From positions 102,209 through 164,204 of the IMG/VR virus record IMGVR_UViG_3300029705_000040: a stretch of DNA of 61,996 bases. The stretch is one strand, 5' to 3'. A program made the position numbers and the translations under genes. Below are positions 1 to 6,287 of the stretch, one piece after another. The notes below the pieces were generated by a model, which did no database searches, had not been told where the DNA came from, and saw only the letters and a list, made by a program, of their open reading frames with translations. The DNA comes from a virus. Taxonomy: Duplodnaviria > Heunggongvirae > Uroviricota > Caudoviricetes. The first letter of the stretch is position 1. The number at the start of each line of letters is the position of its first letter.

Positions 1-2
1 AG

Positions 3-209
3 AAAGTTCCTGCTGATGGTTTAACAGGTAAGTCCGATGAGGATAATTTCGGTTTCACATATAAGCAGTTAGATGCTTTCATTAGGGAAGGTGATTGTGG
101 GGATGAAACTCTCAACAAAAAGATGAAGAAAATGCATGATATGAGCGAACATAAATTGAGAGTTCCTGTAACATATACTGATACATGGTTTCTAAATAGA
201 AGAGATTAA
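3..209 (+). CDS. nadE: NAD+ synthetase, C-terminal part (gene starts before window)
   Basis: Frame 3 reads KVPADGLTGKSDEDNFGFTYKQLDAFIR, matching the NadE C-terminal P-x-DGL...DE-x-x-(L/F)G-x-(T/S)Y motif; ends TAA 207-209. Confidence 0.75.
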   Translation, partial: KVPADGLTGKSDEDNFGFTYKQLDAFIREGDCGDETLNKKMKKMHDMSEHKLRVPVTYTDTWFLNRRD

Positions 210-211
210 AT

Positions 212-556
212 ATGATTTATTTACATTTTGGTTTAGCTTTTTGGATAGTTTTTGGTTTATACTTCTTCTATATAATAATAGATTTAGAATATTATCATGA
301 TGACTTGATAAAAGCTGTTGTAGCATTTTATAAAAGTTTAAGACGACGCATTAGCTCATTTAATATATTTGGAAAGATTTTTTCTTATATTATAAGTACA
401 GCAGTAGCTTTGCCTGCGATATTATTGCATTATATACTCTTTATACCTTTTGTATTAATTATCTGGTTTTTACTCAATATATTTTTCTGGTTAGCTACAT
501 TAAAATTAAAGAAAGATAAAACAACAAAATGGACATCTACAGATAAAACAGAATAA
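212..556 (+). CDS. Small membrane protein, two to three hydrophobic segments
   Basis: ORF track; hydrophobic stretches at the N-terminus and at aa ~50-95. Confidence 0.6.
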   Translation: MIYLHFGLAFWIVFGLYFFYIIIDLEYYHDDLIKAVVAFYKSLRRRISSFNIFGKIFSYIISTAVALPAILLHYILFIPFVLIIWFLLNIFFWLATLKLKKDKTTKWTSTDKTE

Positions 557-586
557 TATTAAAAATCATTAAAATTATAAGTTATC

Positions 587-618
587 TAGTTGATTTCTTA
601 TAATTTTTATTATATAAT
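587..618 (+). promoter_or_regulatory. sigma70-type promoter
   Basis: TAG-TTGATT-17 bp-TATAAT; same architecture at six intergenic sites. Confidence 0.8.
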
Positions 619-648
619 ATTAATATAAGAAATATGTGAGGTAAAGAT

Positions 649-1035
649 ATGTTTTCTATTAACGATAACCACACACTTTTAGAAATGGCCTTAGTTGGAA
701 CAACTAGTGATAATATTGAAATACGAGTGTATGGAAAAGAAGGAAACATTCCACATTTTCACTTTGATCATATACAATCTAAACGAAAGGGTTGTATAAG
801 AATCGATGTTGCAGAATATTTTGATTATGGTGATAAATATAAAGATAGATTAACTAATAAAGAAATAAAAAATTTAATCTTATGGTTAAAATCTGATAAA
901 ACAGTTTTCAAAAAATTTGGTAGCAATATAACTATTTACGATTATATTAAAATATTATGGGATGATAATAATCCGAATTATCCCTTGAAAGAAGATTATA
1001 AAATTCCTGATTATGAGCAGTTGAAAAATTTTTAA
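649..1035 (+). CDS. Hypothetical protein with IPHFH motif (DUF4160-like)
   Basis: ORF track; IEIRVYGKEGNIPHFHF; GAGG RBS. Confidence 0.6.
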   Translation: MFSINDNHTLLEMALVGTTSDNIEIRVYGKEGNIPHFHFDHIQSKRKGCIRIDVAEYFDYGDKYKDRLTNKEIKNLILWLKSDKTVFKKFGSNITIYDYIKILWDDNNPNYPLKEDYKIPDYEQLKNF

Positions 1036-1052
1036 GAGAGGTATTAATTAAA

Positions 1053-1979
1053 ATGGCTAAGTGGGTCGGATATAAAAATGGAAATTATAATGTGCACATT
1101 GACCTTGAAACAGGTACAAAAGTTAGAGAAAATAATTTAGATTTTTTCGAATGTGATACTGTAGAAAGCATGGATGTTAAAATCACTAACTGCTGTGATG
1201 TTGGTTGCGCTATGTGCCATGAGAATAGTACACCTGATGGTAAGCATGCAGATATTTTGAGTCCATCTTTTTTAGATAAATTGCACCCTTATTGTGAGTT
1301 AGCTATCGGTGGTGGTAATCCTCTTGAACACCCTGATCTGCTTAAGTTTTTGGAAAAATGTAAAGAAAGAAAACATATTCCTTCTATGACTGTTAATCAG
1401 GTGCATTTTGAAAAGAATTTTGAGTATGTAAAGAATCTCTGCGAAAATAAGCTTATCTATGGCTTAGGTATTTCTTTGCAAAAAGTAACCGATTCTTTTA
1501 TTGAAAAAGTAAAGCAAATTCCTACTGCTGTTATCCATGTTATAAATGGTATTGTAACAAAAGAGCAGCTCGAGGCTTTAGCTAACAATAACATTAAAGT
1601 TTTAGTTTTAGGTTATAAAGTATTTAGACGTGGTGAGAAACTTTATGAAACTGCAAGCGAAAGCATTGAGAAAAAGAAGTCAATGCTCAAAGAACTTCTT
1701 CCTAACATTATTAAGGAAGGCTGGTTTAAGGTAATTAGCTTCGATAACCTTGCATTAAAGCAACTTGATGTTAGGTCTCATATGACCGAAGAGGAATGGA
1801 ATCGTTTCTATATGGGTGCAGATTCTGAAGAAGAGGATTATAATAATATGAGTGCAACTTTTTTTGTAGATTTAGTTGAAAGAAAATTTGCTATCAATAG
1901 TTGTTCAAATAACAGGTATGATTTGAAAGATACTGCAGAAGAAATGCTTAAATTTTTATATGAAAAATTACATAAATAA
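1053..1979 (+). CDS. Radical SAM protein
   Basis: CDVGCAMC = CxxxCxxC, followed by GGGNPLEHPD. Confidence 0.9.
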   Translation: MAKWVGYKNGNYNVHIDLETGTKVRENNLDFFECDTVESMDVKITNCCDVGCAMCHENSTPDGKHADILSPSFLDKLHPYCELAIGGGNPLEHPDLLKFLEKCKERKHIPSMTVNQVHFEKNFEYVKNLCENKLIYGLGISLQKVTDSFIEKVKQIPTAVIHVINGIVTKEQLEALANNNIKVLVLGYKVFRRGEKLYETASESIEKKKSMLKELLPNIIKEGWFKVISFDNLALKQLDVRSHMTEEEWNRFYMGADSEEEDYNNMSATFFVDLVERKFAINSCSNNRYDLKDTAEEMLKFLYEKLHK

Positions 1980-1982
1980 CAT

Positions 1983-1990
1983 GCTAAATT
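1983..1990 (+). promoter_or_regulatory. GCTAAATT putative late promoter
   Basis: Recurrent intergenic octamer, ~35 bp upstream of the HNH start. Confidence 0.6.
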
Positions 1991-2025
1991 AAGTAGTGCA
2001 ACATTATTTAAGGGAAGAAGTAAAG

Positions 2026-3078
2026 ATGTTAAAGAAACTACTTGATGAAAATTTATTAGAGAGGAATGAATTCTATGATGCATATATTGATTTAATAGCT
2101 CAAAATAAAAATCAGAAGAGAATAAAATATAAAACGGAATAGCATCATATAATTCCTAGATGTTATTTTAAAAGGCATCCATAGAAATTACCTGTGGATA
2201 ATTCAAAAGAGAATTTAATTAATTTATTACATAAAAATCATTTATTAGCACATTATTACCTAGCTAAATGTGCTACTGGTTGGTTAAAATTTTATCTTAT
2301 TTAGGCATTTACTCAACTTCAGCAGCGTCTCAACAAAAATATAAGCTGTGACATATTTAATATAATGGATGATTATTAGGTCTTAATTGAAGAAGGCTTA
2401 AAACTTAAATCAACCTTATATAAAGGCAGAAAATAGTCTGAAGAATCAAAAATTAAAAGAATAGCAACTAGGCTTGAACGTTACCCAGATGGTGTTAGAA
2501 CTAATACAGGCAAAAAGAGATTAATAAAAGATGGTATAAGAATTTTTGTTTTAAGGGACTAGGTAGAAAAATATCTGAAAGATGGTTGGAAATTTGATAG
2601 ACAACCTAGATCAGAAGAAACAAAACAAAAAATACGTGAAGCAAAAAGAGTTAATAAAAAGGTTGCGTGGAATAAGGGTTTGACAAAAGAAATAGATGCC
2701 AGAGTTGCTAAAAACGCAGAATCAACATCGAGATCTATCTAGAGAATAAAGACTGAGAATCCAGATTTATGGAAAAAACATACCGATAATATAGGAAAAC
2801 GTAAAAGAAACTGTGTTGTTGTTACAAATGGAATAGAAGATCGCATGATAAAGTTAGATTTACTAGATGAGTTTTTAGCTAATGGATATGTGAGAGGTAG
2901 AACATTTAAAAAGACTCCTGAGTAGAACAGAAAATCTGCTGAAAAGCGTAAAGGATTAAAGCCTGGAAATTTTGGTAAAATCTGTATATATAATACTACT
3001 ACTGGACATAGAACGTATATATTTGAAGAAGAATTACCTAAATATATTAATTTAGGTTATCATAAAGGAAAAAAGTAA
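2026..3078 (+). mobile_element. Free-standing HNH homing endonuclease with NUMOD3-type repeats (350 aa with TAG read as Gln)
   Basis: ATG 2026 to TAA 3076-3078 with 8 in-frame TAG (2140, 2182, 2302, 2377, 2434, 2560, 2740, 2923); HHIIPR...DNSKENLINLLHKNHLLAH HNH core; SEETKQKIREAK and AWNKGLTKE motifs; three (Y/F)L-x-x-G(W/Y) repeats. Confidence 0.85.
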
Positions 3079-3079
3079 A

Positions 3080-3154
3080 AATAGCTGCAGCAACGATCGT
3101 TATGATCTAATGGATACTGCAGAAGAAATGCTTGCATTCTTAAAGAGTGCCTAA
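3080..3154 (+). pseudogene. Orphaned second copy of the radical SAM 3' end
   Basis: Translates NSCSNDRYDLMDTAEEMLAFLKSA* versus NSCSNNRYDLKDTAEEMLKFLYEKLHK* at 1896-1979. Confidence 0.85.
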
Positions 3155-3182
3155 TATTGATTACACACTTCTTTTATTTACA

Positions 3183-3222
3183 GACCTGGATTTGAAATTA
3201 TTTTTCATTTCCAGGTCATTTT
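3183..3222 (+). terminator. Intrinsic terminator
   Basis: GACCTGGA...TCCAGGTC inverted repeat followed by ATTTTT. Confidence 0.6.
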
Positions 3223-3254
3223 TAGTTGATCTTTTTCTCGATTTATTATATAAT
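3223..3254 (+). promoter_or_regulatory. sigma70-type promoter
   Basis: TAG-TTGATC-17 bp-TATAAT. Confidence 0.8.
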
Positions 3255-3290
3255 ATATGTGTAGAAAATAAATGGAGGTGATATGTAATT

Positions 3291-3554
3291 ATGAAAAAGC
3301 TTTTAGTAAGTATTATTGCGCTAACATCTGTGTTCGCATTTTCAGGTTGCAATGAAAGTTTGGGTATGGGTAATTATAGCTTCAAAAGAGCTCATATTTA
3401 TCTCGGCGGAGAAAAAGGTGTTTGCGTAGAAGTAGAAAGCTGGCACGATAATGAGGTTGGTGTTGAGCTTAAATTAAAAGGTGGGCACAGTATCTATTGC
3501 AGCGAAGGTACATATATGCTGGTAGAAGATTATTGTCCTATTTGTGGTAAATAA
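3291..3554 (+). CDS. Small lipoprotein
   Basis: MKK + hydrophobic core + lipobox FSGC; GGAGG RBS. Confidence 0.75.
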   Translation: MKKLLVSIIALTSVFAFSGCNESLGMGNYSFKRAHIYLGGEKGVCVEVESWHDNEVGVELKLKGGHSIYCSEGTYMLVEDYCPICGK

Positions 3555-3612
3555 AAAAAAAATCCATAATTGTATAAAATAATAAAAATAAATCGGAGGT
3601 AATAATATTATT

Positions 3613-4221
3613 ATGGTAAATGAAATGTTTAATGGTATGTTTGGTAAAGTAGGTAGCGGTATGTGCAAGCTCACGACGAGCGGTAGAATTGCGGTAAATT
3701 GCGGCGGTACATACAAATCTTATAATCCGAAGAATGGTAAGCTCACTAACTGCGGTAATTTTGTCCTCCCTGTTGGTGATGATTTCTTCTTTGTAATTCC
3801 TACTAATAAGGTAGAAGTAGGTGATATTATTTTGGTAAATAAGAAACCTCGCTTTGTAAAGGAAGTAGGTAAGAATCAAATCACGGTTATCAATTACGAA
3901 AACTCTACAATTGAAACTATTCTTCCTGAAAGACATATGTTTATGGGTAACACGTACTTCTATGGTAAGATTGTATCTATGTTTGGTGATTCGCTTAAAG
4001 GTAAAGGCGGCGCAAATAACATGATGAAGTACATGATGATGTCTGAAATGATGAAAGGTAATAATGGTATGAGCGGTATGGGTTCAATGCTTCCTTTCAT
4101 GATGATGTCTGGCGGTAATTTCGAAAATATGTTCAGCGGAATTTTTGATGATGCATCTGATGATGAAGTGGAAGATGTTGAAGTTGTAGAAGAAGATGAG
4201 GCAGTGGAGGATGACGAATAA
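3613..4221 (+). CDS. Hypothetical protein with Met/Gly-rich and acidic C-terminus
   Basis: ORF track; stop overlaps next start (TAATG), so translationally coupled to the vWA gene. Confidence 0.8.
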   Translation: MVNEMFNGMFGKVGSGMCKLTTSGRIAVNCGGTYKSYNPKNGKLTNCGNFVLPVGDDFFFVIPTNKVEVGDIILVNKKPRFVKEVGKNQITVINYENSTIETILPERHMFMGNTYFYGKIVSMFGDSLKGKGGANNMMKYMMMSEMMKGNNGMSGMGSMLPFMMMSGGNFENMFSGIFDDASDDEVEDVEVVEEDEAVEDDE

Positions 4222-5108
4222 TGGGCGGCGGAAGTTGGACTACTCAAGCTTATTGTAATTATTCTGCGAGTAGAGGTAGGACAGTTTCTACGTCTTATGT
4301 TAATGGCGTAGCTACAGCTTCGCTTGCTAATTCTGCTTATTCTACTCAAGAATTTTATAAAGCAAGCAGACTTGATGAAGCGCTTAAGCCTCATAAAGTT
4401 ATGAGAGAATGCTGTGATACAGAAGAGCATCCTGAAACTATTCCTGTTATTTTTGGTCTTGATGTAACAGGCTCAATGGGAAGCTCTCTCGAATTGGTTG
4501 CTAAAAAGCTCAATGAAATTATGACTAGAATCTATCAAGAAGTAAAAGATGTTGAGTTTATGATTATGGGTATTGGTGATTTGTATTGCGATGATGCACC
4601 TATCCAAATCTCTCAATTTGAGTCAGATATTCGTATCGCTGAGCAACTTGAAAAGGTTTACTTCGAAAGAGGTGGTGGCGGTAATGGGTATGAGTCTTAT
4701 ACTGCAGCATGGTATATGGGCTCGAGACATTGTAAGCTCGATTGCTGGAAGCGTGGTAAGAAAGGTATTATTATCACTCTCGGCGACGAACCTCTCAATC
4801 CTTATCTTCCTAGAGAAGCTCTTAATAGAGCTACTGGTGATAGTGTAGAAGCAGATGTTGAAACTAAAGATCTTTATCCGGAAGTAACTGAAAAATTCGA
4901 TGTTTATCATATTGTAGTAACAGATGGTGGATCAAGCTATAGCTGGCATAAGCAAGGAATCAAAAATAGCTGGCCAGAATACCTTGATGAAGAACATCTC
5001 AAGTATGCTAAGATTGATAATCTTGCTGAAATGGTTTCTGAGATTATTACTGGACATGCTAGTTCCGGTACGACTATTAATGGAGAACTTAATACAATTT
5101 CTTGGTAA
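4221..5108 (+). CDS. vWA-domain protein
   Basis: MIDAS GLDVTGSMG, GGGGNGYESY, IITLGDE. Confidence 0.85.
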   Translation: MGGGSWTTQAYCNYSASRGRTVSTSYVNGVATASLANSAYSTQEFYKASRLDEALKPHKVMRECCDTEEHPETIPVIFGLDVTGSMGSSLELVAKKLNEIMTRIYQEVKDVEFMIMGIGDLYCDDAPIQISQFESDIRIAEQLEKVYFERGGGGNGYESYTAAWYMGSRHCKLDCWKRGKKGIIITLGDEPLNPYLPREALNRATGDSVEADVETKDLYPEVTEKFDVYHIVVTDGGSSYSWHKQGIKNSWPEYLDEEHLKYAKIDNLAEMVSEIITGHASSGTTINGELNTISW

Positions 5109-5114
5109 AAATAT

Positions 5115-6287
5115 ATGAAATGTAAAATTGTTGTTGGTGCGAATTATGGTGATGAAGGTAAGGGCTTGGTAACACATGTCCTTACCTCACAATATAAAAA
5201 GCAAAATGAAAGGGTATTAAACATCTTATACAACGGCGGTTGTCAACGTGGTCATACCGTCGAATACAAAAATGGTGCTAAACATGTTTTTAAGCATTTT
5301 GGTAGTGGTACATTAGATGGCGCAGACACATATTTCAATAAAGATTTTATATTAAATCCGACACAATTCATGACTGAGTACTCACAATTAGCTTCTTTAG
5401 ATAAAGAATATTTTAACTCAGAAATGACTAAATGTTTCTGTCATAGAGATTGTAGAGTTTCTACCCCTTATGATGCACTTTTAAATCAGATGCTCGAACT
5501 TAATAGAGATGAAAGCAGACATGGTTCGTGCGGTTGGGGTATTTTTGAAACTAGAAAAAGATATGAAAGCTCTGAGTATGACTGGTCGCTTTTAAAAATG
5601 CGTTGTTCTACTAACCAACAACTTTTTATGTACCTAGAAAAAATTGCTAAAGAATATCTTCCAGAAAAGATTGAAGAGTATGGTATAAAAGATTCTGTAA
5701 TTGAAAAATACAGAAACATTTGTATAAGCTCTGATTTAATTAACGCTTACATTTCTGATTTTAGAGCTATGTGTAAGTTAGTAGATATAATTTATTTTGG
5801 CGATTTAATTAAAAAATATGACGCTGTTATTTATGAGGGTGGACAGGGTTTAGCTTTAAGCGAAACAAATATTAGCGATTTTCCATATTTAACACCTAGT
5901 AAAACTGGCTCAGAAGTACCTATCGAAGAGATTAAACCTTACACAAATGATATCGAAGTTATTTATGTAAGCAGAACATATTTCACTAGACATGGTGCTG
6001 GTCCCTTAGCTTTTGAATGTAATAAAGATAAGCTCAATCCAGAAATTGAAGATTTAACAAATTTTCCTAATGATTTTCAAAAATCACTGCGATTCGCTCC
6101 ATTTGTAGATAAGGATCTCATAGACAGAATCTTGAAAGATGGTTGTACATATAAAAGAAGCTTATATTTAACTCATAATAATTATATTAGACAGTCGGAT
6201 ACTATATTAGAAATCCTATCTGGTTATTTTAGTAAAATTATGTTGAGTTTCGATAAGTACGGGGTAATAAATGAGTGTTTTTCTTAA
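5115..6287 (+). CDS. purA: Adenylosuccinate synthetase-like protein (divergent PurA family)
   Basis: VVGANYGDEGKG, GGCQRGHTV, HFGSGT, YEGGQG, TYFTRHGAGP. Confidence 0.8.
   Translation: MKCKIVVGANYGDEGKGLVTHVLTSQYKKQNERVLNILYNGGCQRGHTVEYKNGAKHVFKHFGSGTLDGADTYFNKDFILNPTQFMTEYSQLASLDKEYFNSEMTKCFCHRDCRVSTPYDALLNQMLELNRDESRHGSCGWGIFETRKRYESSEYDWSLLKMRCSTNQQLFMYLEKIAKEYLPEKIEEYGIKDSVIEKYRNICISSDLINAYISDFRAMCKLVDIIYFGDLIKKYDAVIYEGGQGLALSETNISDFPYLTPSKTGSEVPIEEIKPYTNDIEVIYVSRTYFTRHGAGPLAFECNKDKLNPEIEDLTNFPNDFQKSLRFAPFVDKDLIDRILKDGCTYKRSLYLTHNNYIRQSDTILEILSGYFSKIMLSFDKYGVINECFS

Follow-up and report, generated by a model that had tools for sequence, protein, structure and literature searches.

Layout of the locus and its repeated gene end

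The 61,996-nucleotide (nt) stretch of DNA analyzed here (the window) belongs to the 164-kb genome record of a gut-type phage, IMG/VR IMGVR_UViG_3300029705_000040. Near its left end lies a radical SAM gene whose 3' end is present twice, once on each side of a predicted free-standing HNH homing endonuclease gene. Positions are those of the window throughout, unless a contig or the genome record (G000:C1) is named. The window is AT-rich phage DNA with a G+C content of 31%, and nearly all of its long open reading frames (ORFs) are on the + strand. The features of the locus are as follows; P0007 is the radical SAM protein of a close relative, contig L003 from Logan (SRR13978208).

1053-1979, + strand: hybrid radical SAM gene, in use; 308 codons, no TAG codon, TAA stop at 1977-1979
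1053-1817, + strand: native gene body, matching P0007 of L003 with 97% identity over residues 56-255
1818-1979, + strand: imported replacement 3' end; 53 codons and the TAA stop, duplicating the orphan over 1892-1979
1980-2025, + strand: 46-nt spacer with a purine-rich, ribosome-binding-like stretch at 2010-2017, read directly from the sequence
2026-3078, + strand: predicted free-standing HNH homing endonuclease gene; 350 codons, eight in-frame TAG codons, TAA stop
3076-3154, + strand: native 3' end of the radical SAM gene, left as an orphan; begins at the third base of an Ala codon and continues with 25 codons and a stop (3152-3154)
3183-3217, + strand: terminator-like hairpin and U run, where the transcription unit natively ends; lies 3' of the orphan in this allele

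The radical SAM ORF matches the Pfam Radical_SAM model (E 1.1e-5) and the Fe-S oxidoreductase family phrog_16999 (E 3e-44), and 4173 homologues were found. A first-pass annotation, made from the letters of the window, had noted that the end of this gene occurs on both sides of the HNH gene, and the observation is correct. The direct repeat pairs 1896-1958 with 3080-3142, giving 63 nt of 73% identity with a start-to-start spacing of 1184. The encoded peptides agree at 18 of 21 residues, a match that is detected by blastp at E 2e-7 when all frames of the 164-kb genome are searched and at E 2e-9 locally. The upstream copy closes the radical SAM ORF, in frame with it. The orphan copy, as direct reading shows, lacks a start codon context and lies in a frame different from those of both the radical SAM ORF and the HNH ORF.

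The two tail copies are 56% identical in nucleotide sequence over 1893-1979. Their codons have diverged at many synonymous sites, again as first noted, including Ser (TCA/AGC), Arg (AGG/CGT) and Leu (TTG/CTA). Both tails nevertheless retain the conserved C-terminal residues of the family, and the upstream tail is complete with its own stop. Because the tails differ by multi-step synonymous changes and yet keep the conserved residues, both evolved as parts of working genes in separate lineages.

The right-hand boundary of the insertion is sharp. Homology of the orphan to relatives begins at 3076, and the first three native bases double as the stop codon of the HNH ORF. The cassette therefore ends exactly with the HNH ORF. 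Its start codon is preceded at a distance of 8-15 nt by the purine-rich stretch in the spacer. No terminator-like site was found between the radical SAM ORF and the HNH ORF, and the native hairpin now lies 3' of the orphan, which makes it likely that the HNH gene shares a transcript with the radical SAM gene. The region around this hairpin (3147-3240) has a minimum free energy of -22.5 kcal/mol, with a z-score of -5.6 relative to shuffled sequences. A promoter scan returned sites that are no more numerous than in shuffled sequence.

Relatives with an empty site

The flanks of the locus are nearly unchanged in L003, which lacks the HNH gene of the window. Identity is 98.1% over 250-1207 (958 nt) and 97.7% over 3162-4643 (1482 nt), and the hairpin region is common to both from 3162 onward. 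In this relative the radical SAM gene ends with a sequence of the orphan type. Positions 3003-3081 of L003 match 73 of 79 nt of window positions 3076-3154. The six differences are all synonymous changes at third positions, leaving a peptide that is 100% identical.

A second relative with an empty site encodes a radical SAM protein (P0003) that is 82% identical, and its tail is also of the orphan type. On this contig, 135 nt separate the radical SAM gene from a gene for an 87-residue protein, which is followed by a gene for a 202-residue protein; both genes follow as in the window. The first-pass annotation had proposed looking at relatives without the HNH gene for the tail that they carry. Both L003 and the P0003 contig have the tail type of 3080-3154 and not that of 1896-1979. 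These empty-site relatives bear out the proposal that the endonuclease gene came with a gene 3' end of its own and displaced the native one.

Occupied alleles are also represented more than once. The hybrid protein is found on 23 contigs, and the layouts inspected and the five fetched loci are all occupied. The fetched contigs, from five Joint Genome Institute (JGI) samples, are 100% identical over 1000-3300. The HNH gene is present or absent at one fixed site among close relatives, a pattern by which homing endonucleases are recognized. When published phage genomes were searched with 1053-3300, the only match was 93 nt of 75% identity in Lak phages, and neither an occupied nor an empty allele was recovered.

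A foreign tail on a native body

Comparison with L003 also defines the left-hand boundary. Through most of the radical SAM gene there are one to three mismatches per 45 nt. From 1818 there are 11-16 mismatches per 45 nt and a 6-nt indel, and identity drops to about 65%. This jump places the start of the foreign tract 75 nt upstream of the repeat, so that 53 codons have been replaced. The earlier estimate of about 25 codons holds for the duplicated part, since the orphan comprises 25 codons, but it falls short of the replaced part, whose tract starts near 1818. The radical SAM gene in use is a hybrid, native to about 1817 and then foreign for its last 53 codons, and its left boundary is a homologous crossover.

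The two parts of the hybrid protein have different closest relatives. Residues 56-255, nearly identical to the L003 protein, are 85% identical to P0003. For the tail in use, identity at the protein level is 55% to the L003 tail and at most 66% to that of any of 120 homologues. Homologues ranked by similarity to the orphan (100%, 92%, 79% and so on) fall in the same order as when they are ranked by the body, whereas ranking by the tail in use gives a different order. When residues 252-308, the tail in use, were searched on their own, no source closer than 69% was found. The first-pass annotation had described this C-terminus as recoded; its sequence instead marks it as a diverged natural homologue from another lineage.

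Junction residues Ala-Ile-Asn, common to the tail in use and to two other homologues (P0010 and P0041), were also considered and are most likely ordinary lineage variation. Downstream of the radical SAM gene, the P0010 and P0041 contigs leave no gap or uncalled stretch that could hold an endonuclease gene or an orphan tail, although genes called there were not themselves scanned and no search for an orphan was made.

The HNH gene and its TAG codons

Under the standard genetic code, 1996-3078 is a series of short ORFs. With TAG read as a sense codon, 2026-3078 becomes a single ORF of 350 codons that contains no other stop within that length. In-frame TAG codons are present in many + strand ORFs of the window. 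One TAG of the HNH ORF aligns to a column with a Gln majority in a 25-sequence alignment. The 164-kb record encodes 35 tRNA genes, two of which have the anticodon CTA; these two are adjacent, 91 nt and 78 nt long, and lie outside the window at G000:C1:27231-27403. The genome evidently reads TAG as sense, and the HNH ORF should be translatable only where TAG is suppressed. TAG codons were tried as a specific mark of endonuclease genes and this idea was dropped. The other TAG-rich ORFs of the window do not encode endonucleases, and one of them encodes a thymidylate kinase.

The HNH protein matches the homing endonuclease family phrog_655 (E 3.5e-20) and, over residues 3-81, the HNH endonuclease family phrog_12434 (E 2.5e-5). 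H40, H41, H72 and H76 are shared by the protein and all of 24 relatives, and N63 by nearly all. In an AlphaFold model with a mean predicted local distance difference test score (pLDDT) of 86, the conserved residues are carried by strands 37-41 and 64-68 and by a helix at 69-82. Alignment and model together predict an HNH (beta-beta-alpha-metal) motif with conserved His, Asn and His, the feature by which HNH homing endonucleases are defined.

The remainder of the protein is less easily placed. Enzymes of this class may carry NUMOD3 repeats as DNA-binding modules in the C-terminal part. The score of the HNH protein against the Pfam NUMOD3 model is weak and below threshold (E 2.6); many of its relatives carry NUMOD3 (PF07460) and align across the corresponding segments. 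The nearest relative is 34% identical. An IMG/VR search with the HNH protein alone found no relative, whereas a search with the alignment found 80 distant loci. A Foldseek search of PDB with the full-length model gave no match at E <= 0.001, and VIA-align returned only helical look-alikes with Z below 6; both comparisons are uninformative for an elongated multi-module protein. A phmmer search of PDB sequences with the HNH protein returned nothing relevant.

A proposed route of invasion

Sequence and analogy together make it very probable that the HNH gene entered the genome of a TAG-recoded, jumbo-type phage as a compact cassette composed of tail, 46-nt spacer and ORF, inserting into the 3' part of the radical SAM gene. 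The steps of such an event can be modeled on free-standing phage endonucleases and on the mobile ORFs of mitochondria. During a mixed infection, the HNH enzyme would cut the cassette-free allele in or near the segment that is replaced. The break would then be repaired from the cassette-bearing genome, with the body of the radical SAM gene serving as the left homology arm and the native tail and downstream DNA as the right arm. The heterologous 1.26-kb block 1818-3075 would be copied in by this repair.

A genome that carries the cassette would be immune, because its native site is split by the insertion and, around the homologous spot, its tail in use departs from the native sequence at many positions. 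Just to the right of the homologous junction, 16 of 39 positions differ. The replacement tail is therefore presumed to be resistant to cleavage, as the first-pass annotation had also supposed. Each homing event would regenerate the orphan from a recently functional tail, a step that fits the purely synonymous differences between the orphan and L003.

Cleavage by free-standing phage endonucleases can occur some distance away. The cut site had earlier been put near AATAG, but the junction at 3075/3076 marks the insertion point only. The cut can be placed no more finely than within the equivalents of 1818-1930.

Several points weigh against an invasion by the HNH gene. Cleavage and mobility by the HNH enzyme, as well as expression of the locus, are inferred from the sequence and by analogy. 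Formation of the first right junction requires a non-homologous or microhomology join, which is beyond reconstruction. No Pfam HNH model matches the HNH protein, and neither the donor of the replacement tail nor a close relative of the HNH gene was found in the searches. Finally, the occupied alleles are all identical, so that selection on the HNH gene is not measurable.

Other explanations of the hybrid

The hybrid might also have arisen by passive mosaic recombination with a diverged phage in which an HNH gene happens to lie downstream of the radical SAM gene, the nuclease being uninvolved and perhaps inactive here. Cleavage by the HNH protein is, after all, a deduction. A second small patch of divergence from L003, at 1305-1367, has no nuclease gene beside it in the window, and flanking duplications accompany HNH relatives at only about 2 of 80 loci. 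Passive exchange is still unlikely. It does not anticipate a right junction that interrupts a coding sequence and coincides exactly with the HNH stop codon, nor an HNH ORF that is intact and has kept its conserved His and Asn residues. When the genome is compared with itself, moreover, both of the gene-end duplications that are spaced by about 1 kb bracket homing endonuclease genes, and these belong to two unrelated families.

HNH genes are often found in phage group I introns, and the downstream tail of the radical SAM gene is intact, with only synonymous differences from L003. The HNH gene could on these grounds reside in a self-splicing intron, or in another insert that is spliced or bypassed, such that about 1895 is joined to 3080 and the downstream tail is the real one. 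This arrangement is very improbable. In a cmscan search of 1-6000 with a cutoff of E 1, neither group I or group II intron models nor any other relevant Rfam family gave a match, in keeping with the intron-free locus originally proposed; the one hit is a chance match resembling a small nucleolar RNA (snoRNA) at 4156-4216. The upstream tail is complete, with its conserved C-terminal residues and its own stop. An intron needs no exon duplication, and its insertion leaves unexplained why the foreign tract begins 75 nt upstream of the repeat.

An equally slim chance attaches to the reverse order of events, in which the occupied state is ancestral and genes of the L003 type arose by deletion of the HNH gene through recombination between the tail copies. 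The copies do share an identical stretch of 21 nt that could be used for a crossover. However, had the HNH gene been deleted between the repeats, sequence upstream of the crossover would still be of the in-use type, and L003 differs from the window also in the 75 nt upstream of the repeat (1818-1892). In that interval L003 agrees with the close homologues P0003-P0006, and it is the window that is the outlier.

Recurrence of the design

Duplicated gene ends around endonuclease genes are a recurrent but minority design. Invasion by an endonuclease gene with its own gene end has four further candidate examples of this layout, one in the 164-kb genome and three at loci of HNH relatives (L032, L033 and L042). 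The example in the same genome lies outside the window at G000:C1 ~64418-66509 (L011:1919-4013), where a GIY-YIG/NUMOD3 gene (Pfam 1.6e-7) with four TAG codons stands between two copies of a gene start. The upstream copy is an orphan 5' end of 30 codons. Downstream, the start of a calcineurin-like phosphoesterase gene repeats the orphan with 63% identity over 27 residues. This start is an N-terminally extended replacement, and relatives of the phosphoesterase begin like the orphan. By its sequence, the locus is a mirror image of the HNH/radical SAM case.

Among the HNH relatives, 5' stubs are present on two of four fetched contigs (L032:2843-4360 and L033:2835-4346). The stubs are 32 or 41 codons long, and a full gene for 117 or 118 residues with a 50-57% identical start lies on the other side. 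At L042:2234-4260, an HNH relative is bracketed by the two copies of a duplicated 3' end of 95 residues from a lipase-like gene with a GYSHG motif. A whole-gene duplicate surrounds the endonuclease gene at L084:940-3615. L042 and L084 account for the approximately 2 of 80 IMG/VR loci of distant HNH relatives with flank duplications.

It is a tentative possibility, less probable than its opposite, that cassettes of an endonuclease gene and a replacement gene end are a general and undescribed route by which free-standing homing endonucleases enter phage coding sequences without an intron or intein. If so, the 5' or 3' ends of enzymes would be swapped between distantly related phages as a by-product. 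The TAG-rich nuclease ORF would then be translated only after the suppressor tRNAs of the phage become active, while the TAG-free target gene and its tail would be expressed regardless.

A different endonuclease arrangement in the sister allele

The radical SAM gene of L003 has been entered at another point. Within L003:804-3081 the gene is fractured before the third Cys of its Cys motif, corresponding to window positions ~1207-1215. The first of three ORFs has an N-terminal intein half (Pfam Intein_splicing, E 1.2e-8) at its end, followed by a stop. Next, in another frame, is an HNH-like ORF of 325 codons, with nine TAG codons and a match to phrog_8048 (E 1e-4). A third ORF begins with a C-terminal intein half (E 4e-5) and continues with the rest of the radical SAM protein. 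No relationship is detectable between this HNH-like ORF and the HNH gene of the window. Two close relatives bear two different endonuclease solutions in one gene, and the replacement tail of the window and the split intein of L003 form a compact system for comparing these strategies.

An intein was also considered for the window allele and rejected. Its radical SAM ORF ends with TAA before the HNH ORF, and the HNH protein has no Hint or intein match.

The mosaic patch at 1305-1367 in the window's radical SAM gene has 18 mismatches to L003 in about 63 nt, and several residues are changed. This patch may be a co-conversion scar tied to the intein site about 100 nt upstream.

Relation to known systems

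The closest parallels are found in fungal mitochondria. In Glomus sp., the atp6, atp9, cox2 and nad3 genes each comprise, in order, the body of the gene, a foreign C-terminus that has been inserted, the ORF of the endonuclease and the native C-terminus (Beaudet et al. 2013, PMC3630166). The native copies there are 91-98% identical in nucleotide sequence (94-100% in amino acid sequence) to a close relative, whereas the duplicates are 64-81% alike (PMC3630166). The atp6 gene of Allomyces macrogynus is the same kind of hybrid, going by what PMC3630166 relates of Paquin et al. 1994, and the atp6 and cox2 genes of Phlebia radiata are further hybrids made by mobile ORFs (PMC4019555).

The phage locus has the same order of elements, with a duplicated end flanking the endonuclease ORF and the inserted copy in frame with the body. 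Its native copy is likewise near to that of a relative (the orphan is 92% identical to L003 in nucleotide sequence and 100% in amino acid sequence), its two copies are likewise diverged (56% overall and 73% in the repeat), and in both settings the donor is not identifiable. The host is an organelle in one case and a phage in the other. The mitochondrial endonucleases are of the LAGLIDADG or GIY-YIG type, whereas the phage enzyme is of the HNH type. Unlike the mitochondrial mobile ORFs, the phage endonuclease has an ORF to itself, which begins at a start codon of its own downstream of the gene's stop codon and requires TAG suppression. The Glomus hybrids are expressed, according to reverse transcription polymerase chain reaction (RT-PCR) (PMC3630166), while the phage hybrid is known here as DNA sequence.

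Intronless homing by a free-standing endonuclease of T4-like phages is reported for SegF (Belle et al. 2002, PMC155333). Such genes resemble the HNH gene of the window in being free-standing, in having no intron or intein, in being present or absent among close relatives, and in co-conversion of adjacent sequence, here 1818-1892. SegG and MobE are reportedly further free-standing endonucleases of T4-like phages with intronless homing. The T4 genes are intergenic and are not known to leave a duplicated gene end, whereas the insertion described here lies inside a coding sequence and supplies a replacement end.

In Aeromonas phage Aeh1, nrdA is reportedly split by mobE (Friedrich et al. 2007, PMC1851037). 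That locus also has a free-standing gene of the HNH type inside a phage enzyme gene that stays usable. It reportedly yields two polypeptides that reassemble and involves no duplication, in contrast to the single ORF with a substitute tail in the window. Fractured genes, which Dassa et al. are said to have described in 2009 (Nucleic Acids Res), have an intein split into two halves that are separated by a free-standing endonuclease gene. The L003 allele of the same radical SAM gene has this layout. It differs in location (the Cys motif), its HNH protein is not detectably related, and the window allele is without an intein.

No phage precedent for the duplicated-end design was found in the literature, although most subscription journals lie outside the coverage and this is no proof of absence. 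The design itself is known from fungal mitochondria; it is found here in a new class of host, the phages, with a clean natural empty-site control and sister examples. It shows how a homing endonuclease that brings its own copy of the gene end can reside in a protein-coding gene of a phage with neither an intron nor an intein. Because the last 53 residues of the hybrid enzyme are foreign, such elements move pieces of host genes in addition to themselves.

There are also consequences for annotation. Orphan gene ends beside endonuclease genes should not be mistaken for pseudogenes, introns or errors of assembly. Applying the standard code to a recoded phage causes the endonuclease ORF to be overlooked.

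Neighboring genes

L003 has an extra ORF of 120 codons (L003:3100-3465), inserted at window 3154/3162, after the stop of the radical SAM gene and before the terminator-like hairpin. This ORF is a diverged paralogue of the 128-codon ORF at window positions 649-1035, just upstream of the radical SAM gene. Neither ORF has a Pfam or PHROG match. Seven genes of the genome start with the same short peptide around a FETNSSS motif (G000:C1 13117, 26635 and 87607-89809). Genes of the FETNSSS type are also located directly upstream of the radical SAM homologue at L001:2914-3983 and L002:3468-3983.

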